DNA of 64,000 bases from Bacteroidia bacterium (lineage in GTDB: Bacteria; Bacteroidota; Bacteroidia; CAIKAF01). The DNA lies in NCBI GenBank assembly GCA_030427255.1, contig JAUHWY010000018.1:2359-66358 (forward strand). The letters are read 5' to 3'. The number at the start of each line of letters is the position of its first letter. Position 1 is the stretch's first letter. The notes beneath the pieces were generated by a model, which was not told the DNA's origin, made no database searches, and saw only the letters and a list, made by a program, of their open reading frames with translations. This document shows positions 1 to 47,854 of this stretch, piece by piece. The translations under genes and the position numbers were made by a program.

Positions 1-26
1 GGAACCGGGGCCCAAAACCCCTTTTC

Positions 27-1448
27 TCAATAACCCAATATTTTGAGCATGGATTTGTAGCTCTGTTCTTTGCTGAACAGTTTGGTGGTGTAGTCTCCGT
101 CCTCGTCGCGGTCAATGATTACGTGCTTTGGCGAGGGTATGAGGCAGTGTTGTATGCCTCCAAATCCGCCTAGGCTTTCTTGATACGCGCCGGTGTGAAA
201 AAATCCCAGATAAAGCGGTTGTCCTTCCGGGATTTTGGGCAGAAACACCTGTCCGATGTGTGCTTCGCTGTTGTAATAGTCTAAGCTGTCGCAGGTGAGG
301 CCGCCGAGGTTGACGCGCTGGTATGGCTGGTCCCAATGGTTGATGGCCAGCAAAATGAATCGGTGCTTAAGGCCCCAGGTGTCGGGTAGGGTGGTGATGA
401 AGCTGGAGTCAATCATGTACCAAGACTCGGTATCGTTTTGCTTTTTCACGTCCAGAATAGAGAAGAGGCTGGCGCCGCTTTCGCCAACGGTGAATGAGCC
501 GAATTCGGTGAAGATATTGGGTTCCTCAACGCCGTTGTCGTTGCAGTACTGTTTGATTTGTGCAATGATTTCTTGAATGATGTATTCGTAGTCGAAATCA
601 AATCCCAAACTATTTTTTATGGGCAGTCCGCCGCCAATGTTGAGGCTGTTGAGGCTGGGACATTCCTTTTTTAAGGCCACATATACGCTTAGGCATTTGG
701 ACAGTTCTGACCAATAATACACGTTGTCCCTAATTCCGGTATTGATGAAAAAGTGAAGCATTTTAACCTCGAAGCGCTTGTCGCCTTTGAGGTGCTCGCG
801 GTAAAAGGGTACGATGTCTTTATAGCGGATCCCCAATCGGGAAGTATAGAACTCGAAATTAGGTTCTTCTTCAGAAGCGATGCGCAGGCCTAGCTTGAGG
901 GGTTTGGCGTCTTGAGGCAAATGCTTTTTGTAAAAATCCAATTCGCCCATGTTGTCTAAAACGGGCAAAAGGTTGCTAAACCCTTGGGCATGGAAATCTA
1001 AAATGTGCTCTTGGTAAGGTTGACGCTTAAAGCCATTGCAGACCAAAAAGCGGTTTTTGTCAAACAAGCCGCGGCTGTGCAGCTCCTTAACAATCTCCAT
1101 ATCGTAGGTAGAAGAAGTTTCGATATGCACATCGTTTTTTAAAACTTCCTCGAGTACAAAGGAGAAATGAGAGCTTTTGGTGCAATAGCAATAGGTGTAG
1201 CTTCCTTGGTAATCGGCTTTGGCCATAGCCACCTTAAAGAGTATCTTCGCTTTCTGAATTTGAGTGGAGATTTTTGGAAGGTAGGTAATTTTAAGTGGGG
1301 TGCCGTATTGCTTGATTACCTCCATAAGAGGAATGTCATGAAAATACAACTCTTCGTCTTCTACCCGAAATCCGTCTTGTGGGAAATCGAAGGTTTGGTG
1401 AATAAGGTCTTCGTATTTAATTTTCATAAACCACACGCTTTGGTTCAA
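27..1448 (-). CDS. speA: Arginine decarboxylase (PLP-dependent, fold-type III decarboxylase family, SpeA-like)
   Basis: 473-aa ORF. It has the N-terminal region typical of biosynthetic ADC, an Orn/Arg/DAP decarboxylase-like Lys region (YCTKSS) and Gly-rich NIGGGLP. An arginase-family gene lies next to it. Confidence 0.7.
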   Translation of the reverse strand: MNQSVWFMKIKYEDLIHQTFDFPQDGFRVEDEELYFHDIPLMEVIKQYGTPLKITYLPKISTQIQKAKILFKVAMAKADYQGSYTYCYCTKSSHFSFVLEEVLKNDVHIETSSTYDMEIVKELHSRGLFDKNRFLVCNGFKRQPYQEHILDFHAQGFSNLLPVLDNMGELDFYKKHLPQDAKPLKLGLRIASEEEPNFEFYTSRLGIRYKDIVPFYREHLKGDKRFEVKMLHFFINTGIRDNVYYWSELSKCLSVYVALKKECPSLNSLNIGGGLPIKNSLGFDFDYEYIIQEIIAQIKQYCNDNGVEEPNIFTEFGSFTVGESGASLFSILDVKKQNDTESWYMIDSSFITTLPDTWGLKHRFILLAINHWDQPYQRVNLGGLTCDSLDYYNSEAHIGQVFLPKIPEGQPLYLGFFHTGAYQESLGGFGGIQHCLIPSPKHVIIDRDEDGDYTTKLFSKEQSYKSMLKILGY

Positions 1449-1545
1449 AGATGAGAAAATAATGCATCTGTGGTACAGTTGACATGAAAAAATAAACCAA
1501 GTGCTTTACTTTATGTTGTAAAGTAGCATGTAATCGATTCGGATT

Positions 1546-2562
1546 ATGAAAGATATTTGCTTTGTAGAGGTTAAATCGGAACTAGGTGCGGGAACCCGCG
1601 GCGCCAGTTTGGGGGTAGATGCGCTCAAGATAGCCTCTTTGCATTACGGTGACTACCTGTTTGGAAAATACAAAAGCCACGAAATACGAGACAGCAGCCG
1701 CTTGCTTTACCGCAACCCGGTGCGTACCCACGCCAAGCGCATTCGAGGCATTGAAAAGATATTCGGGAAACTGGCCAACACGGTGCAAAAAAAGCTTCAG
1801 GCCAATACCCTGCCGGTTGTGGTTTCGGGCGACCATTCCAGCGCCGGTGGAACCATAGCCGGGGTAAAAATGGCTTACCCAAACAAAAGACTTGGGGTAA
1901 TTTGGATTGATGCACACGCCGATTTGCACTCTCCCTACACCACCCCAAGCGGCAACGTACATGGCATGCCTCTGGCCACGGCTTTGGCGGTAGACAATTT
2001 GGACAATCAACTCAACGACCTGACGGACGGTGATATACAGCTGCATTGGGAGCGTCTAAAGAATACAGGAGGCATTCGGCCTAAGATAGTTCCTGAAGAT
2101 TTGGTATTCGTAGGAATCCGAGATTTGGAAAGCCCCGAAATCAATTATATCCGCGACCATAAGGTGGCCGTGCATACCGTGCAGCAATTGAGGGAACAGT
2201 CCGTTAAGAAAAAGTGCCAAGAAATTTTAGCCTACTTGTCTGATTGCGAAGTGCTGTATATTAGCTTTGATATTGACAGCTTAGATGCCCGTTTGGTTCC
2301 GGGAACCGGAACTCCGGTAGATCAAGGATTGACCTTTAGAGAGGCGGAATTGCTGCTGCAACACCTCTTGACCGACCCGCGGGTGGTTTGCTTTGAAATG
2401 ACCGAAATTAATCCATTATTGGACGAGAAAAACCATACGGCCGAGCAGGTGTATCCCCTGTTTAAAAAGGCCGTGCGGACATTGGAAAAGCATGTGAAAA
2501 AAGGAAAGGCCAAGGCCAAGACAAAGGGATCGATGGAAGCGTCCGACCTAAGCTCTGACTAA
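1546..2562 (+). CDS. Arginase/agmatinase/formiminoglutamase (ureohydrolase) family protein, probably agmatinase given its ADC neighbour
   Basis: Ureohydrolase signature motifs are present: SGDHSSAGG, IWIDAHADLHSP and SFDIDSLDA (the Mn-binding DAHxD / SxDxD motifs). The C-terminus is Lys-rich and low-complexity. Confidence 0.75.
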   Translation: MKDICFVEVKSELGAGTRGASLGVDALKIASLHYGDYLFGKYKSHEIRDSSRLLYRNPVRTHAKRIRGIEKIFGKLANTVQKKLQANTLPVVVSGDHSSAGGTIAGVKMAYPNKRLGVIWIDAHADLHSPYTTPSGNVHGMPLATALAVDNLDNQLNDLTDGDIQLHWERLKNTGGIRPKIVPEDLVFVGIRDLESPEINYIRDHKVAVHTVQQLREQSVKKKCQEILAYLSDCEVLYISFDIDSLDARLVPGTGTPVDQGLTFREAELLLQHLLTDPRVVCFEMTEINPLLDEKNHTAEQVYPLFKKAVRTLEKHVKKGKAKAKTKGSMEASDLSSD

Positions 2563-3601
2563 GGTAAACACAGTTATTTCAGGCCTAACATTAAAGCGAA
2601 TCGGCCAACTGCAACCCAATGCGCGGTTAATGTATACCCGTTTTTTATCGTCCACCTCAATATCGCCGCAGCTGTATTTTTTATTTTTTACCGGCAATAT
2701 AGGTGCTTCTAAGAAGGGCGCTTTGCATTGCCCCCCGTGGGTGTGCCCGGCCAACACATATCCTCTGTACGCACCCCAACCCGGCAAATCGCAGGCATCC
2801 GGGTTGTGGCAAAGCACCACTCCCGGGCCATCAAAATCGTAGCGGCTAAAAGTTTTTTGAATGTCCCATTGCTTGGCCCACAAGTCATCTGCACCGGCAA
2901 TTTGTAAGCCATGAACCTCCACTTGCTCGTTGCGGAGCATCTGCACTCCTTGGTTTTCCAGGATATTTTTGATGTGCTGTGCAACAGACCCCTGCGCCCA
3001 ATTTTTACCATAATCGTGGTTTCCAAGGATGCCTAGGGTAGCCATAGAACCGAAAAGTCCATGGCGCATCACCTCTTGCAATTGGCTGAATTGTTCCTGG
3101 TTTTCATAACTGACAAAATCACCGGTATATTCTGAGGCCGTTGACGCGTTGTGTTTTCAAGGCGAATTAAGGCACGGTCAAATTGAAAGTCCGCAGTTTA
3201 CTGATTGTAAATGAGGAACTTGAGATTTGGCCGTAACGCAAAGTCGCCGCCAGAATAGCAACGCGTCAACGGTCTCATACTACTAGTTCCGGTGCATAAG
3301 CCCTAGCCTTTTGCATGGACTCCATCAAATAGGAGTAAGGAAAGCGGTTGCCCACGTGCATATCGCTGATTTGGATAAGGCGTTTACCTCCCAAGGCTTT
3401 GGGAAGACCATGAATGGGCAATGGGCGCTCTACAAATTCCAAACGGTAGGGCGCCACTTTCCATGCATAAATGCCCAGGCCCAAGCTCATGCCTCCGGCG
3501 GCCCACATGCTTTTTTTTAAGAAGGAACGTCGGTTCATGGCACATGAACGGAGGCTGGGGAGGAGTGGTATGCAAGAACTGTTAAGAATCCTTGAATACA
3601 T
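2548..3601 (-). pseudogene. Calcineurin-like metallophosphoesterase with Tat-type signal, interrupted by a 145-bp insertion element
   Basis: The N-terminal ORF 3275..3601 carries a Tat-type signal (RRSFLK) and ends ...ISDMHV...YAPELVV*. The C-terminal ORF 2548..3081 has GNHDYG and GHTHGGQ. The conserved D-L-V-V-x-T-G-D motif is split: ELVV ends at 3278 and TGDFVSY resumes at 3126. The in-frame sequence between them contains stops. Confidence 0.6.
3133..3277. mobile_element. MITE-like insertion, about 145 bp, with 15-16-bp terminal inverted repeats (GGCCGTTGACGCGTTG ... CAACGCGTCAACGGTC)
   Basis: Near-perfect terminal inverted repeats at 3136-3151 and 3260-3275. It lies exactly within the conserved phosphoesterase motif. 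A diverged partial copy sits at 47148-47222. Confidence 0.6.
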
Positions 3602-3742: not shown

Positions 3743-4990
3743 ATGCGCAACTTTATTTTCGCTATTCTTCTGGTTTGTATTGGCCTTAGCACCTCAGCTC
3801 AAGGGGTTTTGATTGGAGACACGGCCCAGCCGCCGCATCCTGATGCCCTGCTCGAACTGCGCGGTTCAAGAGCCCTTTTGATGCCTCGGCTCAACACCAC
3901 CCAACGAAACGCCCTGCAAAATCCGGTACCCGGCATGCAGATTTACCATATTGACGACCAATGCGTCGAAGTGTATTTTCCCAGTCAAGGCTGGAGCGAC
4001 GTGGCCTGCGACTGCCCCAATCCCCCCTCGGCCGGTTTTAGCTTTAGCCCCAGCAGCCCAAACCTGAATCAATCGGTGACTTTCACTCCCGCCTCCGGTG
4101 GACTTAATTACCAATGGACCTTTGCCTCAGGAACTCCGGCAAGTTCAAACGCATCAAGCCCTCAAGTGAGCTGGACTCAAGCCGGCAACTACAATGTGCA
4201 ATTGGTGGTTACCGACAACACCGGCTGCACCGACACCAGCAACCAAAGCGTAACTGTGAACGCCTGCAACCCACAATCCGGTAACCAGACCTTCAACTAT
4301 ACCGGCAGCATGCAAACCTTTACCGTACCTGCCTGCATTACCAATTTGCAGGTAACCTTGTATGGAGCGGAGGGCGGTCAGCGCAACAGCCAGCCCGGTG
4401 GCCAAGGCGGCATGGTGAGCGGCGATTTGGCCGTAAGCCCGGGGCAGTTGGTTTATGTATATGTGGGTGGCCGAGGTGCCAATCAGCAAACCGCCGGTTG
4501 GAACGGTGGCGGCATTGGCGATTTTCAAGCCGGTGGCGAAGCCGGCGGCGGCGGCGGTGCTTCTGACCTGCGGCTGAATGGAACCAACCTTTCCGACCGA
4601 GTAGCGGTGGCTGGCGGCGGTGGCGGTTCCGGTTGGAATCGCGCCGGAGGACAAGGCGGCGGATCTACCGGCGGCGCGGGCCAGGGTCCTTACCCCGGAC
4701 AGGGAGGAACCCAAAGCGCAGGCGGTGCCCAGGGAGTAGATTTGTGCAATAACCAAACTTCAGCCCCGGGCATATTGGGCCAAGGTGGCAATGGAGCCAG
4801 TGGCGGTTGTGGTTCCGGCGGCGGAGGCGGCGGTGGCGGTGGCTACTACGGCGGCGGCGGTGGGGGCACCAACAACCCGGACTTAGGCTCCGGCGGCGGT
4901 GGCGGCTCCAATTATACCGGTGGACTCACCAATGCCAGCGGCAGCAGTGGCGTGCGCAGCGGAGACGGACAGATTTTGATTTCTTGGTAA
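3743..4990 (+). CDS. Secreted PKD-domain protein with a long glycine-rich C-terminal region (paralog of 51531..52829)
   Basis: Signal peptide MRNFIFAILLVCIGLSTSAQG. Conserved N-terminal module (ALLELRGS..LMPRLNTTQRNAL..GMQIYHIDDQCVEVY). PKD-like segment (NYQWTFASGTP...VQLVVTDNTGCTD). The TFTVPAC...GAEGG block is followed by G-rich repeats including GGGGGGGGGYYGGGGGG. The C-terminus is GDGQILISW. The ORF listed from 3689 probably starts at the Met at 3743. Confidence 0.7.
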   Translation: MRNFIFAILLVCIGLSTSAQGVLIGDTAQPPHPDALLELRGSRALLMPRLNTTQRNALQNPVPGMQIYHIDDQCVEVYFPSQGWSDVACDCPNPPSAGFSFSPSSPNLNQSVTFTPASGGLNYQWTFASGTPASSNASSPQVSWTQAGNYNVQLVVTDNTGCTDTSNQSVTVNACNPQSGNQTFNYTGSMQTFTVPACITNLQVTLYGAEGGQRNSQPGGQGGMVSGDLAVSPGQLVYVYVGGRGANQQTAGWNGGGIGDFQAGGEAGGGGGASDLRLNGTNLSDRVAVAGGGGGSGWNRAGGQGGGSTGGAGQGPYPGQGGTQSAGGAQGVDLCNNQTSAPGILGQGGNGASGGCGSGGGGGGGGGYYGGGGGGTNNPDLGSGGGGGSNYTGGLTNASGSSGVRSGDGQILISW

Positions 4991-10040: not shown

Positions 10041-10099
10041 TAACATTGGGCGATTCTTTTTAAGAAATCTATGATAAGGTGGAAGGGCAATGGTGAATG

Positions 10100-10545
10100 A
10101 TGAATGATGAATGATAAATGATAAATGATGAATGATAAATGATGAGGTAAAGACGGGATGCCTCCCGTCTCTCCATGATGATGTAAAGACGGGACATTTC
10201 CCGTCTCCGAATGATGAGGTAAAGACGGGATATCTCCCGTCTCCGAATGATGATGTAAAGACGGGATGCCTCCCGTCTCTCAATGATAAGGTAAAGACGA
10301 GATATCTCCCGTCTCTCCATGATGAGGTAAAGACGGGACATTTCCCGTCTCCGAATGATGATGTAAAGACGGGATGCCTCCCGTCTCTCAATGATAAATG
10401 ATGAGGTAAAGACGGGATGCCTCCCGTCTCTCCATGATAAGGTAAAGACGGGACATTTCCCGTCTCTGAATGATAAGGTAAAGACGGGATGCCTCCCGTC
10501 TCTCAATGATGAGGTAAAGACGGGATGCCTCCCGTCTCTCAATGG
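10100..10545. repeat. AATGATG/AATGATA heptamer array followed by 11 tandem 37-bp hairpin units (AATGATGAGGTAAAGACGGGA-loop-TCCCGTCTCTC)
   Basis: Units read off directly. Each unit has an 8-bp stem AGACGGGA/TCCCGTCT with a variable 4-nt loop (TGCC, CATT, TATC). There are no unique spacers between units. Confidence 0.85.
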
Positions 10546-38529: not shown

Positions 38530-38890
38530 TGTTTTTTTTGGGCGCCTTTTGGGGCCCTCGCTGCAAGTCCTCGGCTTGGGCGCACGGAGCGCTAAGGCTT
38601 GCGGGGGCTCCGCAAAGCTCCGCCTCCACAGCCCAAGCGCTCCGGCGCCCAAGCCTCCGGGCTTTCCGCATCGGTCCCCGGCGCAGAATCTCTATACTTT
38701 GGTAGACCATCTAAACCTTAGGGTTTAGTACATTCCAAAGAATGGCCCCCCGGCCCGGGTGGACGCCCACGCTGCGGCAGGCCTTAGGTTCGGCCCGGCC
38801 TTACTAGTGGAGCTTTGCGGAACTCAGTAAGGCCGGATTGCCGACCTTAGGCCTGCCGCAGTGAGGCTGGAACCAGGGGCCGATAGATGC
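38527..38890. repeat. Two tandem GC-rich palindromic core elements
   Basis: T8-GGGCGCC start. Inverted repeat GGCTTGGGCGCACGGAGCGCT ... AGCGCTCCGGCGCCCAAGCC. Second module begins CAAAGAATGGCCCCCCGGCC, as at 10667. GTGGAGCTTTGCGGAAC is shared with 52830 and 58290. Confidence 0.6.
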
Positions 38891-45409: not shown

Positions 45410-46774
45410 TTATTTGGCTTTTTTCCTGTCGTTTTTGAGCATGTTATAGATGGTGCTCTTAGATATCCCTAGCTTGTCGGCTACCAACAATACCTTTTGG
45501 TCGTACTTGTCCAAATAGAAATTTATGATGTCTCGCGTGTAGTCTTCCAAACGTTTTTCTTCTTGCAAAAATCCGGTTTGGTTTTTTTGCACTTTATGGA
45601 TAATAATATCCTTGTCCGAAATCACCTCGGAATTGCTTACCACGCAGGCCAGTTCAATCATTGCCTTTAGTTCGCGCACGTTACCCGGAAAGCTGTATTT
45701 TTTAAGCTTCACCATGGCCTCATCGCTGAGGGTTTTTACCGGCCGGTTGTTTTGGGTGGCATATTGCTTTAAGAAAAAGCCGGTTAGAATGGGCAAATCC
45801 TCTAAACGGTCCCTTAGCGCAGGTAAGGCAATAATTAGCCCAAGCATGGAATAATATAAATCTTCCCTAAAGATTCCTTCTTTAACCAGTTCCTCAAGGT
45901 TTTTGGTAGTGGAAAAAAGAAAGCGTAAATCAATGGGGATGGTTTTGGTTCCCCCCACCCGCGTTAAGGTTTTGTTTTGAATGGCTTGCAAAAGGCGTCC
46001 TTGAACAGCCAAGGGTAAATCGCAAATTTCATCAAGAAGCAAGGTGCCTCCCTGCGCCTGTTCCAAAAGCCCCGGCCTAGAGACGGGCGACTTAGGATCA
46101 GGCCCCGGTTTTTCGGAACCAAACAAGGTTTCTTCAATGTCTTTTTCGGGAACACCGGTAATGTTTACCTGAACAAAGGGTTGCGCTTTTCTGGACGATC
46201 TAAAATGAATGGCTCTAGCCACCAGTTCTTTACCTGTGCCTGTCTCTCCGGTTATGGTAACATGGATTTGTGTGTCTGCGGCTTTTTGAACCAAATTGGC
46301 CACTTCTTGCATGGCAGCTCCTTGGCCAACCAAGCTTTTGGAAGGGTTCAATTGCTCGCCAAGCTGCTTACGTAAATCTCGGTTCTCTTTTTCCAAGGCA
46401 GTTGCTTTGGAAATGTTATTTACAACCTTCCAAAGTCTTTCTTTGGTGTCGTCGTCTTTTACAATATAATCGTAGGCACCTTCTTTGAGCAGCGTTACTG
46501 CCGTTTTAATGTCTTCTTGTCCCGATATTATAATGACCTTTTGCTCCGGATTGTAGGCTAAAATTTTTTCTAAGGCCAAACTACCCGGCATGTCCGGTAA
46601 TCGATAATCCAGCGTAATTAGGTCCGGATTCAGGTGCAAATAATCCAAGCACTCTCCTGCCGATTGGAATTTAGTAATAGAGTTTGCGGGAGACATTCCT
46701 AAATAGTACTCCAAAAACTCTCCATACCAAGGATCGTCCTCAACTATAAATATGGTTAATCCTCCTTGTACCAT
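45410..46774 (-). CDS. Sigma-54-dependent response regulator (NtrC family: REC, AAA+, Fis-type HTH)
   Basis: REC domain with the conserved Asp (IFIVEDD...D). Walker A GETGTGKE. ESELFGH-like and GAFTGA-region AAA+ motifs. C-terminal HTH. Confidence 0.85.
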   Translation of the reverse strand: MVQGGLTIFIVEDDPWYGEFLEYYLGMSPANSITKFQSAGECLDYLHLNPDLITLDYRLPDMPGSLALEKILAYNPEQKVIIISGQEDIKTAVTLLKEGAYDYIVKDDDTKERLWKVVNNISKATALEKENRDLRKQLGEQLNPSKSLVGQGAAMQEVANLVQKAADTQIHVTITGETGTGKELVARAIHFRSSRKAQPFVQVNITGVPEKDIEETLFGSEKPGPDPKSPVSRPGLLEQAQGGTLLLDEICDLPLAVQGRLLQAIQNKTLTRVGGTKTIPIDLRFLFSTTKNLEELVKEGIFREDLYYSMLGLIIALPALRDRLEDLPILTGFFLKQYATQNNRPVKTLSDEAMVKLKKYSFPGNVRELKAMIELACVVSNSEVISDKDIIIHKVQKNQTGFLQEEKRLEDYTRDIINFYLDKYDQKVLLVADKLGISKSTIYNMLKNDRKKAK

Positions 46775-47147
46775 AAATCAAAAGTGCCTAATAGCGTATG
46801 TATTGTTTAGAGGACAAATACCAAACTTAGTAAACCGAGCCCATCCAAAATGCTGCATTACACCCATGTTGTCTTAAGTTTGACTTTCACTCCATGTCTC
46901 AAAAATACACTACCCGTTAGGATTTCCAAAATTTAGAAATTATTAAACTTTGTCCTCCCTTTTGTTTTACTTTTGGCTGTGGTCATAATCATCAGAAAAT
47001 CAATATGCTATTTTTTTAGTCTTGGTTTTTTGTGGCATTATTTAATTTTATTTATTGATAAATTGCTCCAATTTATGGAAAATGGGATGCCTAGTCTATC
47101 GGCTTATCCCGTGTCCGTCATTTTTTGATTTTTTTGACTTTGAGCCC

Positions 47148-47222
47148 CTTGATGCCTTGTGTTTTTAAGCCAAGCATCCTAGCCCAAACCTAAAGATAGA
47201 ATCGCCACCAGAATAGCAGCGA
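47148..47222. repeat. Diverged or deleted copy of the MITE found at 3133-3277
   Basis: CTTGATGCCTTGTGTTTTTAAGCC matches the left end GTTGACGCGTTGTGTTTTCAAGG. CGCCACCAGAATAGCAGCGAGCCAAC matches the right end CGCCGCCAGAATAGCAACGCGTCAAC. Confidence 0.5.
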
Positions 47223-47257
47223 GCCAACATTCTCCTTTTGGTGCAGATTCCAGGGCT

Positions 47258-47854
47258 TTGTATTTTTGCTGTATGTTGCGATTGGCTTTACCTACTGACC
47301 CCCGTTGGGCCCATGCCGCTCAAATGGATATTTCCGAGATATTGACCGACCATGCTTGGTGTGAGCAAAAGGCAGCCAGCTCTGCCATATCCCTCATGGT
47401 TCAATACCCGGAATTCCCGGACTTGGTGCGTCAAATGGCCGAACTCGCACGGGAAGAAATGGAACATTTTCAGCGGGTACATCAGCGCATTCAAGACCGA
47501 GGACTTAGCCTTGGAAGAGAGCGGAAAGACCCCTACGTACATGCCTTAATTTCTTTCCAAATCAAACAGGGCACTAAAGAGCAAAGGTTAAGAGACAAAC
47601 TTTTAATGGCTGCCCTAATTGAAGCCCGCAGTTGCGAAAGGTTTAGGTTGCTGAGCGAAGAAATAGCAGACCCTTCTTTAGCCGATTTTTACAGAGAATT
47701 AATGGAAAGCGAAGCTGCTCATTACACCTTATTCATAACCTTGGCCAGAGATTTAACCGGGAGAGAAGCCACCGATGTACGGTGGAGTGAATGGCTAAAC
47801 TACGAAGCCGAACAAATTCAAAAATTCCAGAGCGGAAAAGGCATACATGTTTAA
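47258..47854 (+). CDS. miaE: tRNA-(ms2io6A37) hydroxylase MiaE (ferritin-like di-iron)
   Basis: ILTDHAWCEQKAASSAISLM matches the MiaE signature region. ExxH di-iron motifs (EEMEHF, ESEAAHY). The start is probably the Met at 47324. Confidence 0.7.
   Translation: MYFCCMLRLALPTDPRWAHAAQMDISEILTDHAWCEQKAASSAISLMVQYPEFPDLVRQMAELAREEMEHFQRVHQRIQDRGLSLGRERKDPYVHALISFQIKQGTKEQRLRDKLLMAALIEARSCERFRLLSEEIADPSLADFYRELMESEAAHYTLFITLARDLTGREATDVRWSEWLNYEAEQIQKFQSGKGIHV

Follow-up and report, generated by a model that had tools for sequence, protein, structure and literature searches.

A putative miniature inverted-repeat transposable element in a metallophosphoesterase gene of a Bacteroidia bacterium and its relatives in uncultured Flavobacteriales

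A prokaryotic MITE (miniature inverted-repeat transposable element) is defined as a sequence shorter than 500 bp with terminal inverted repeats (TIRs) of ~4-30 bp, direct repeats around young copies, a preference for A+T-rich intergenic DNA and transcripts that form stable stem-loops (PMC10969869). The Chunjie element of Geobacter uraniireducens is one example, with one copy disrupting a phosphate-uptake operon, dozens more in intergenic positions, and several length variants (PMC10969869). [quoted passage not shown] Here we describe an element of the MITE kind in a stretch of 64,000 nucleotides from a Bacteroidia bacterium (contig JAUHWY010000018.1, positions 2,359 to 66,358; hereafter the window), where it interrupts a metallophosphoesterase gene encoded on the minus strand at 2548-3538. 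The feature is very probably a copy of a non-autonomous DNA transposon whose insertion made the gene a recent pseudogene. Its parts, in window coordinates, are as follows (TSD, target-site duplication).

3134..3276, minus strand: MITE copy of the 143-nt length class, non-coding, forming one long imperfect hairpin; bounds from the family alignment and the TSD position
3259..3276, minus strand: GAGACCGTTGACGCGTTG, the TIR of the gene-strand 5' end, with no difference from the family consensus
3134..3151, plus strand: GAGGCCGTTGACGCGTTG, the TIR of the gene-strand 3' end; it departs from the consensus at one position, with a G variant shared by L042 and L049
3277..3281, minus strand: upstream TSD copy, AGTAT on the gene strand (ATACT on the plus strand)
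3129..3133, minus strand: downstream TSD copy, AGAAT on the gene strand (ATTCT on the plus strand), one base off the upstream copy
3275..3538, minus strand: N-terminal gene fragment, 87 aa, with an RRSFLK twin-arginine-like leader and the D-x-H motif, ending ...APELVV and then TGA
2548..3128, minus strand: C-terminal gene fragment, from YTGDFVSY to the stop codon, with the GD, GNHD, H and GHTH motifs, out of frame with the N-terminal part

An earlier reading made from the letters of the window alone (the sequence-only reading) had proposed a 145-bp element with 16-bp TIRs. The small element bounded by TIRs stands, and the family alignment described below corrects its dimensions to 143 nt with TIRs of 18 bp. 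It also adds a feature that was absent from that reading, a TSD of 5 bp, so that the net insertion is 148 nt (143-nt element plus 5-bp TSD), equal to the gap defined by orthologues. The perfect core of the inverted repeat is 14 nt long (CCGTTGACGCGTTG), and its sole two matches in the 64 kb at up to 2 mismatches are the two arms; the inverted repeat is well beyond chance. An extension to 24 nt (88% complementarity) was discarded, as its outermost 6 nt belong to the imperfect TSD and the flank and lie outside the TIR, and a 2-bp 'TA' or 'AT' TSD, guessed from the single copy, gave way to the family-wide 5-bp duplication. The premature TGA is composed of the last T of the upstream TSD copy and the GA of the TIR. 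The insert has 3, 2 and 1 stops in the three gene-strand frames, which confirms the in-frame stops of the sequence-only reading, and the net length of 148 nt leaves a remainder of 1 on division by 3.

The insertion separates VV from YTGD in the second metal-binding motif and lies two codons upstream of G91-D92, which are invariant. The N-terminal open reading frame (ORF), 3275-3601 on the minus strand, has its likely start (MNRRSFLKK) at 3538 and meets the TGA at 3277..3275; the two halves of the gene are offset by one frame, and any excision whose length is 1 mod 3 rejoins them. From alignments of orthologous proteins and DNA, the ancestral sequence at the site is ...GAA CTA GTA GTA TAT ACC.... 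Excising the element with one TSD copy gives back APELVVYTGDFVSYE and restores the reading frame exactly, and the uninterrupted gene sequence across the junction, with the element absent, is GTAGTATATACC. A 145-nt excision would rejoin the frame too, but with one additional Glu that none of the 13 orthologues has, and the 148-nt excision is preferred. The glutamate codon before YTGD is part of the duplicated target copy and not ancestral; thus the C-terminal frame given by the sequence-only reading as 'EYTGDFVSY' does resume at YTGDFVSY, without the Glu.

The restored protein matches PF00149 (Metallophos) with E = 5e-10, above the curated cut-off, and contains the complete motif set of calcineurin-like metallophosphoesterases (D-x-H, GD, GNH(D/E), H, GHxH). 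The motif residues D59, H61, G91, D92, G124-D127, H196 and G216-H219 are invariant in an alignment of 14 sequences. When homologues of the repaired protein were searched for, thousands of Metallophos proteins of 280 aa were found; the closest (P0001) is 88% identical and the next ~58%. All 13 aligned orthologues read VV-YTGD with no residue in between, which bears out the claim that a metallophosphoesterase has been split in its metal-binding motif; the comparison with orthologues, proposed with that claim as a check, gave an uninterrupted ancestral sequence in 13/13. At the DNA level, the P0001 locus (L002) can be aligned with both flanks of the insertion, leaving one gap whose size fits 148 nt; L002 has the empty form of this metallophosphoesterase site and the window the filled form. 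The gene is monocistronic, converging on an arginase-family gene and diverging from a gene for a PKD/glycine-rich protein, and given this arrangement no polar effect on the neighbours is expected.

Several observations suggest that the insertion is young. No other lesion was found in the metallophosphoesterase gene, and all 89 alignment columns that are invariant among the 13 orthologues are retained in it. The ratio of nonsynonymous to synonymous substitution rates (dN/dS) against L002 is 0.09 (N-terminal part 0.12, C-terminal part 0.08; dS 0.70), a measure that is blind to a short neutral period. The element itself differs from the consensus of its length class at 4 positions, one of them private. 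Since the gene is otherwise intact and the copy has one private substitution, the insertion would be recent relative to the divergence from L002. These data support the view, already put forward by the sequence-only reading, that the gene is a recently formed pseudogene. The C-terminal remainder has no leader, and the ORF scan gave no start upstream of residue ~103 (TTG at 3081). The ORF fragments 2548-3128 and 3275-3538 belong under one pseudogene label in annotation. The interrupted allele was found elsewhere only in Logan contigs of the same sample, and no called gene on record corresponds to the N-terminal fragment.

Relatives of the element were sought in a collection holding a single genome for each GTDB species, which was scanned with the TIR core followed by six degenerate inward bases, and 60 loci were recovered. 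About 25 of these come from Flavobacteriales bacterium M30B58 (JAGYKD01) and about 28 from a metagenome-assembled genome (MAG), CAZJFM01, labelled Candidatus Competibacteraceae. The remaining loci were singletons in unrelated high-GC taxa, and on inspection they proved to be chance matches inside coding sequence. The window's own copy is in none of the scanned loci, and its genome is therefore outside that collection. When the element was compared with the scan loci by BLAST, many copies were 94-97% identical over 143-146 nt, among them those in L026, L019, L025 and L015, and longer or shorter variants shared the termini only. Pairing of TIR cores in the two congeneric MAGs and the window yielded 41 non-redundant copies. 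The consensus terminus, GAGACCGTTGACGCGTTG, is 18 bp long and conserved across the 41 copies (17/18 in the window copy). The copies fall into length classes of 93, 120, 134, 143, 147, 167-171, 194 and 221-276 nt; the 143-nt class has ten members with a mean pairwise identity of 93%. Conservation extends ~34 nt from one end and ~30 nt from the other, and past position 18 the inverted symmetry between the two ends is limited to a short GGCGA block. The family looks to have been recently active, judging from its 94-97% identical copies, and is apparently a previously undescribed one. The claim of a dispersed family, as opposed to a one-off palindrome, is thus upheld by dozens of copies in two related MAGs, by two metagenome sources and by the filled/empty pair presented below. 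Neither of the two findings that the sequence-only reading had named as fatal to it, a coding role of the segment in orthologues or a single copy with no relatives, occurred.

Internally, the short forms hold one to three small CCTGAC...GTCAGG hairpin modules. The interiors of many variants, short and long (L009, L010, L018, L032, L050), likewise consist of one to three small hairpin modules (…GTCCTGACGCTGCGGTCAGGA…), and the length variation of the family looks modular, arising by gain and loss of sub-hairpins rather than by simple deletions.

The 41 copies define the duplication. A perfect 5-bp direct repeat is present exactly at the TIR edge in 19 of them, versus an expectation of about 0.7 with shuffled flank partners, and in only 0-1 of them at boundaries shifted by 1-3 nt; one copy (L019) has a 6-bp duplication. 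The pentamers so duplicated differ in sequence between copies and have an A+T content of 73%, as against 52% for the window. A filled and an empty allele of one site were found in the alignment of the window with L010 (M30B58), which is 89.6% identical and breaks exactly at L010 6763-6882. L010 reads CCATC-TAAGC, then the 120-nt element, then TAAGC-CTTAGC, and the window reads CCATC-TAAAC-CTTAGG.

38712..38716, no strand assigned: empty target site TAAAC; the orthologous site in M30B58 is filled with a 120-nt family copy

Together, the TIRs, the fixed 5-bp TSD at the element edge and the filled/empty pair indicate that these sequences probably spread by cut-or-copy-and-paste transposition.

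The hosts of the family appear to be close relatives. The window is ~90% identical to M30B58 over 6.8 kb, and the two MAGs are 88% identical to each other over 5.9 kb, both with ~48% GC; with such identity levels and GC, the window, M30B58 and the CAZJFM01 MAG can be taken as congeners. A metagenome scan with the exact 18-mer detected true members only in Joint Genome Institute (JGI) sample Ga0129345 (8 contigs) and in one Global Ocean Sampling (GOS) contig; two matches in viral contigs were chance ones. Across the genomes and metagenomes scanned, the family is apparently restricted to a genus-level group of uncultured Flavobacteriales with small (~2.9 Mb), aquatic genomes. The CAZJFM01 MAG is deposited as 'uncultured Candidatus Competibacteraceae bacterium binchicken_co208_42'; it has at least 27 family copies, and its fetched loci have 47.6% GC. 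The 88% identity over 5.9 kb is seen, for example, between L062 (2-5912) and L045 (1-5879). The Competibacteraceae label looks wrong, at least for the CAZJFM01 contigs in question. The exact 18-mer GAGACCGTTGACGCGTTG was also seen in eight unrelated metagenome contigs of high GC (61-66%; L063, L071, L074, L077, L081, L095, L103 and L112), each time with a second copy at 4 mismatches 224 nt away on the same strand; these contigs probably carry a conserved gene with an internal repeat that resembles the TIR by chance.

Copies of the family are mostly outside genes. After in-silico excision, 3 of the 41 lie in a long ORF, defined as at least 60 codons on both sides, versus 63% of random positions in the same loci. 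This bias may be the result of selection against genic copies, and it agrees with the report that ~90% of bacterial MITEs are intergenic and ~10% within genes, MITEs being abundant in Bacteroidota (PMC11602168); the present data do not challenge that understanding. The window copy is the clearest genic case, with 145 and 195 codons on its two sides. In M30B58, a 143-nt copy (L015 7175-7317) interrupts an AbiEii toxin gene (type IV toxin-antitoxin / abortive-infection), whose restored ORF matches PF08843 across the junction with E = 6e-19. For the third in-ORF copy (L049), the surrounding ORF matches no family and is unlikely to be a gene. The family has therefore hit at least two genes, for the metallophosphoesterase and for the AbiEii toxin, and the former is a clean, dated example of a MITE that would have inactivated a conserved periplasmic-type metallophosphoesterase, mainly of local value.

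With respect to the described systems, the element is small and non-coding (143 nt; 93-276 nt in the family), has TIRs and a TSD, and occurs in dispersed copies with insertion polymorphism, as is characteristic of a MITE. It shares with Chunjie and other prokaryotic MITEs the direct repeats in young copies, the dozens of variable-length copies with conserved ends, the mostly intergenic location with an occasional gene-disrupting copy, and the stable stem-loop transcript. It differs from them in host, an uncultured Flavobacteriales, and in sequence, which is unrelated to those compared (no match among plasmid, phage and Rfam entries). The A+T-rich duplications of 5 bp (19 copies) or 6 bp (L019) are also those of TIMEs; however, the TIR here is 18 bp long and begins GAGA, the copies measure 93-276 nt and there are dozens of them, at least 24, per genome, so neither a 38-40-bp IR homologous to Tn3 nor a low copy number is found, and no Tn3-type transposase was detected in the fetched loci or the window. 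A comparison made by hand with what we take to be the Tn3 IR gave 11/38 identical positions, a lead and not a computed result. The Correia (NEMIS) elements of Neisseria are similar in size (~100-155 bp), in having TIRs, in their high copy number and internal-deletion length variants, and in being mostly intergenic. They duplicate TA and have 26-bp TIRs, whereas the present family duplicates 5 bp of variable sequence and is unrelated to them in sequence. Rickettsia palindromic elements (RPEs) are palindromic repeats of similar size inside protein-coding genes, but their insertions preserve the reading frame and become part of the translated host protein, unlike the insert described here, which adds 148 nt with stops in every frame and truncates the protein.

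We propose that a transposase supplied in trans would recognise the 18-bp TIRs, probably with the ~30 nt of conserved sequence at each end, and would cleave an A+T-rich 5-bp target in a staggered manner; repair of the stagger would leave the 5-bp direct duplication. In the present case, one copy has entered the target AGTAT, overlapping the Val-Val-Tyr codons of a metallophosphoesterase gene with a twin-arginine leader. The junction creates the TGA stop and the 148 added nucleotides shift the frame, such that the gene could yield at most an 87-aa N-terminal stub and a leaderless C-terminal part without the D-x-H motif. The enzyme might be of a kind not yet linked to MITEs of Flavobacteriales, either a Tn3-like transposase that escapes immunity, proposed because of the 5- or 6-bp A+T-rich duplications, or an unrecognised one; we regard this more specific proposal, of a high-copy MITE mobilised in such a way, as rather unlikely.

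Candidates for the autonomous parent were sought among 116 loci, and no TIR pair was more than ~330 nt apart, nor was there a transposase beside an unpaired TIR. Unpaired TIRs were considered as possible ends of a parent and rejected, being degenerate copies or chance 18-mers in high-GC coding sequence (L028, L043, L059). BLAST against plasmid and phage records gave no related sequence, and the metagenome and viral scans with the 18-mer gave only short MITE-bearing contigs and chance matches, with no parent among them. Three-kb multi-copy segments beside family copies (L005, L051, L027) were likewise rejected as a parent, since they encode giant secreted adhesin-like paralogues and not transposases. 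These paralogues (L005 1-3372, L051 2-3793, L027 2-3334; M30B58 contig 2) are 65-93% identical in DNA and very large, and they combine a signal at the N-terminus with PKD repeats and a glycine-rich domain of the ALK/LTK type; a MITE copy is found a few hundred bases beyond the start of each gene. In the window, the gene beside the disrupted phosphoesterase (3743-4990) shows this glycine-rich/PKD composition as well.

Over its full length, the element forms an imperfect hairpin (-32.2 kcal/mol as DNA, z = -5.9; -56 kcal/mol as RNA, z = -7.1), and this property is the basis of two explanations in which the sequence would act through its structure. The element could be a palindromic repeat of the repetitive extragenic palindrome (REP)/bacterial interspersed mosaic element (BIME) or RPE type, kept for its hairpin in mRNA stability, in termination or as a tolerated domain insertion; folding that spans the entire element, high copy number and a mostly intergenic location would all suit such a role. 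This is highly improbable in view of the clear TIRs, the exact-edge 5-bp TSD and the filled/empty pair. Furthermore, changes in the stem are not compensated: across copies, TIR changes affect a single arm in 60 cases and are matched in 2 (permutation P = 0.08), counts that are biased by a search in which one arm was required to be exact. The uncompensated changes give no sign of selected pairing and fit double-stranded ends that a transposase might recognise and that then decay. An in-frame RPE-like insertion is contradicted by the stops in every frame and by an insert length that is not divisible by 3, and termination by the lack of a T-run after the hairpin. Scans for sigma-70 promoters and intrinsic terminators around the element gave nothing above shuffled expectation, with Bacteroidota promoters lying outside the promoter model. 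The same stable hairpin, joining the element ends, could instead mark an intervening sequence acting on RNA, a self- or host-spliced intron or a translational bypass that would leave the full-length enzyme being made, and removal of 148 nt does restore the frame exactly. Yet Rfam gave no match over the whole window at the gathering threshold, and at E <= 10 the segment 3050-3360 produced a single chance match (E = 4.8) and no intron or ribozyme family. At 143 nt, the element is smaller than the known introns of group I and group II. For a bypass, there are no matching take-off and landing codons, with GTA before the stop and no GTA at the 3' junction. With the duplications at 19/41 copies being a signature of DNA transposition, and with 38/41 copies outside long ORFs, where splicing or bypass would have no role, we find an RNA-level explanation scarcely credible.

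Two other possibilities bear on the state of the locus in the population and in the assembly. Precise excision at the DNA level in part of the population would make the metallophosphoesterase phase-variable, and the element a reversible switch. The gene is otherwise perfectly intact and the element young, in a family that is apparently recently active; moreover, a Logan assembly from the same sample breaks at the element, which could reflect heterogeneity. Its contigs (run ERR3428543; L001 and L120) are 100% identical to the window over 1-3162 and from 3400 onward, which places the same strain in ERR3428543, and they stop inside the element (3162) and 124 nt past its other end (3400). But intactness is equally expected after any recent insertion, and many CAZJFM contigs also end at family copies, such breaks being common in this short-read MAG. 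The break in Logan is what is expected for a repeat, and repeat-induced breakage is a sufficient explanation of it; the ~143-nt repeat accounts for broken contigs where this lineage was assembled from short reads. An empty allele of this strain was not found, and the 4/5 TSD makes precise excision by recombination between TSD copies less likely; on balance a switch is very improbable. The same break might also be read as a sign that the metagenome assembly wrongly joined a repeat copy into the gene, the element being a multi-copy repeat that the independent assembly of the strain fails to cross. Here, Logan contig L001 shows the downstream junction (TSD and 33 nt of the element) with 100% identity, and neither a near-perfect target duplication nor an exact restoration of frame is expected from a chimeric join, so we consider an artefact extremely improbable.

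Against these stand the arguments for a MITE insertion, which has itself some points to its disadvantage. The TSD of the window copy is imperfect, with 4 of 5 bases matching. The upstream junction is seen in the window only, as the sole independent assembly of the strain stops short of spanning the element. A search of the ~480 kb of fetched loci, the window, and the plasmid and phage records gave neither an autonomous element nor a transposase with matching TIRs; mobilisation in trans is therefore inferred. Likewise, the loss of function would follow from the sequence of the gene.

A second, decayed member of the family was found in the window.

47142..47234, minus strand: 93-nt short form, matched end to end by the short-form profile (E = 2.5e-9)

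A shorter diverged relative had been placed at 47148-47222 by the sequence-only reading, and the profile match confirms it with slightly wider limits. The profile of the 143-nt class (nhmmer) also matches its termini collinearly on the minus strand, at 47199-47234 (E = 0.006) and 47142-47172 (E = 0.03). Its TIRs are decayed (5/18 and ~4/20 mismatches), and no clear TSD was seen at 47142-47234. The copy occupies the gap between a sigma-54 response-regulator gene (45410-46774, minus strand) and miaE (47258-47854, plus strand).

Possible uses of the family are as a marker of strains or lineages and as a starting point in the search for its transposase. Elsewhere in the window, 10089-10544 has several staggered and overlapping matches, at 69-87% identity, with L029 5-371 and with L031, which suggests a tandemly repetitive coding segment common to these genomes.

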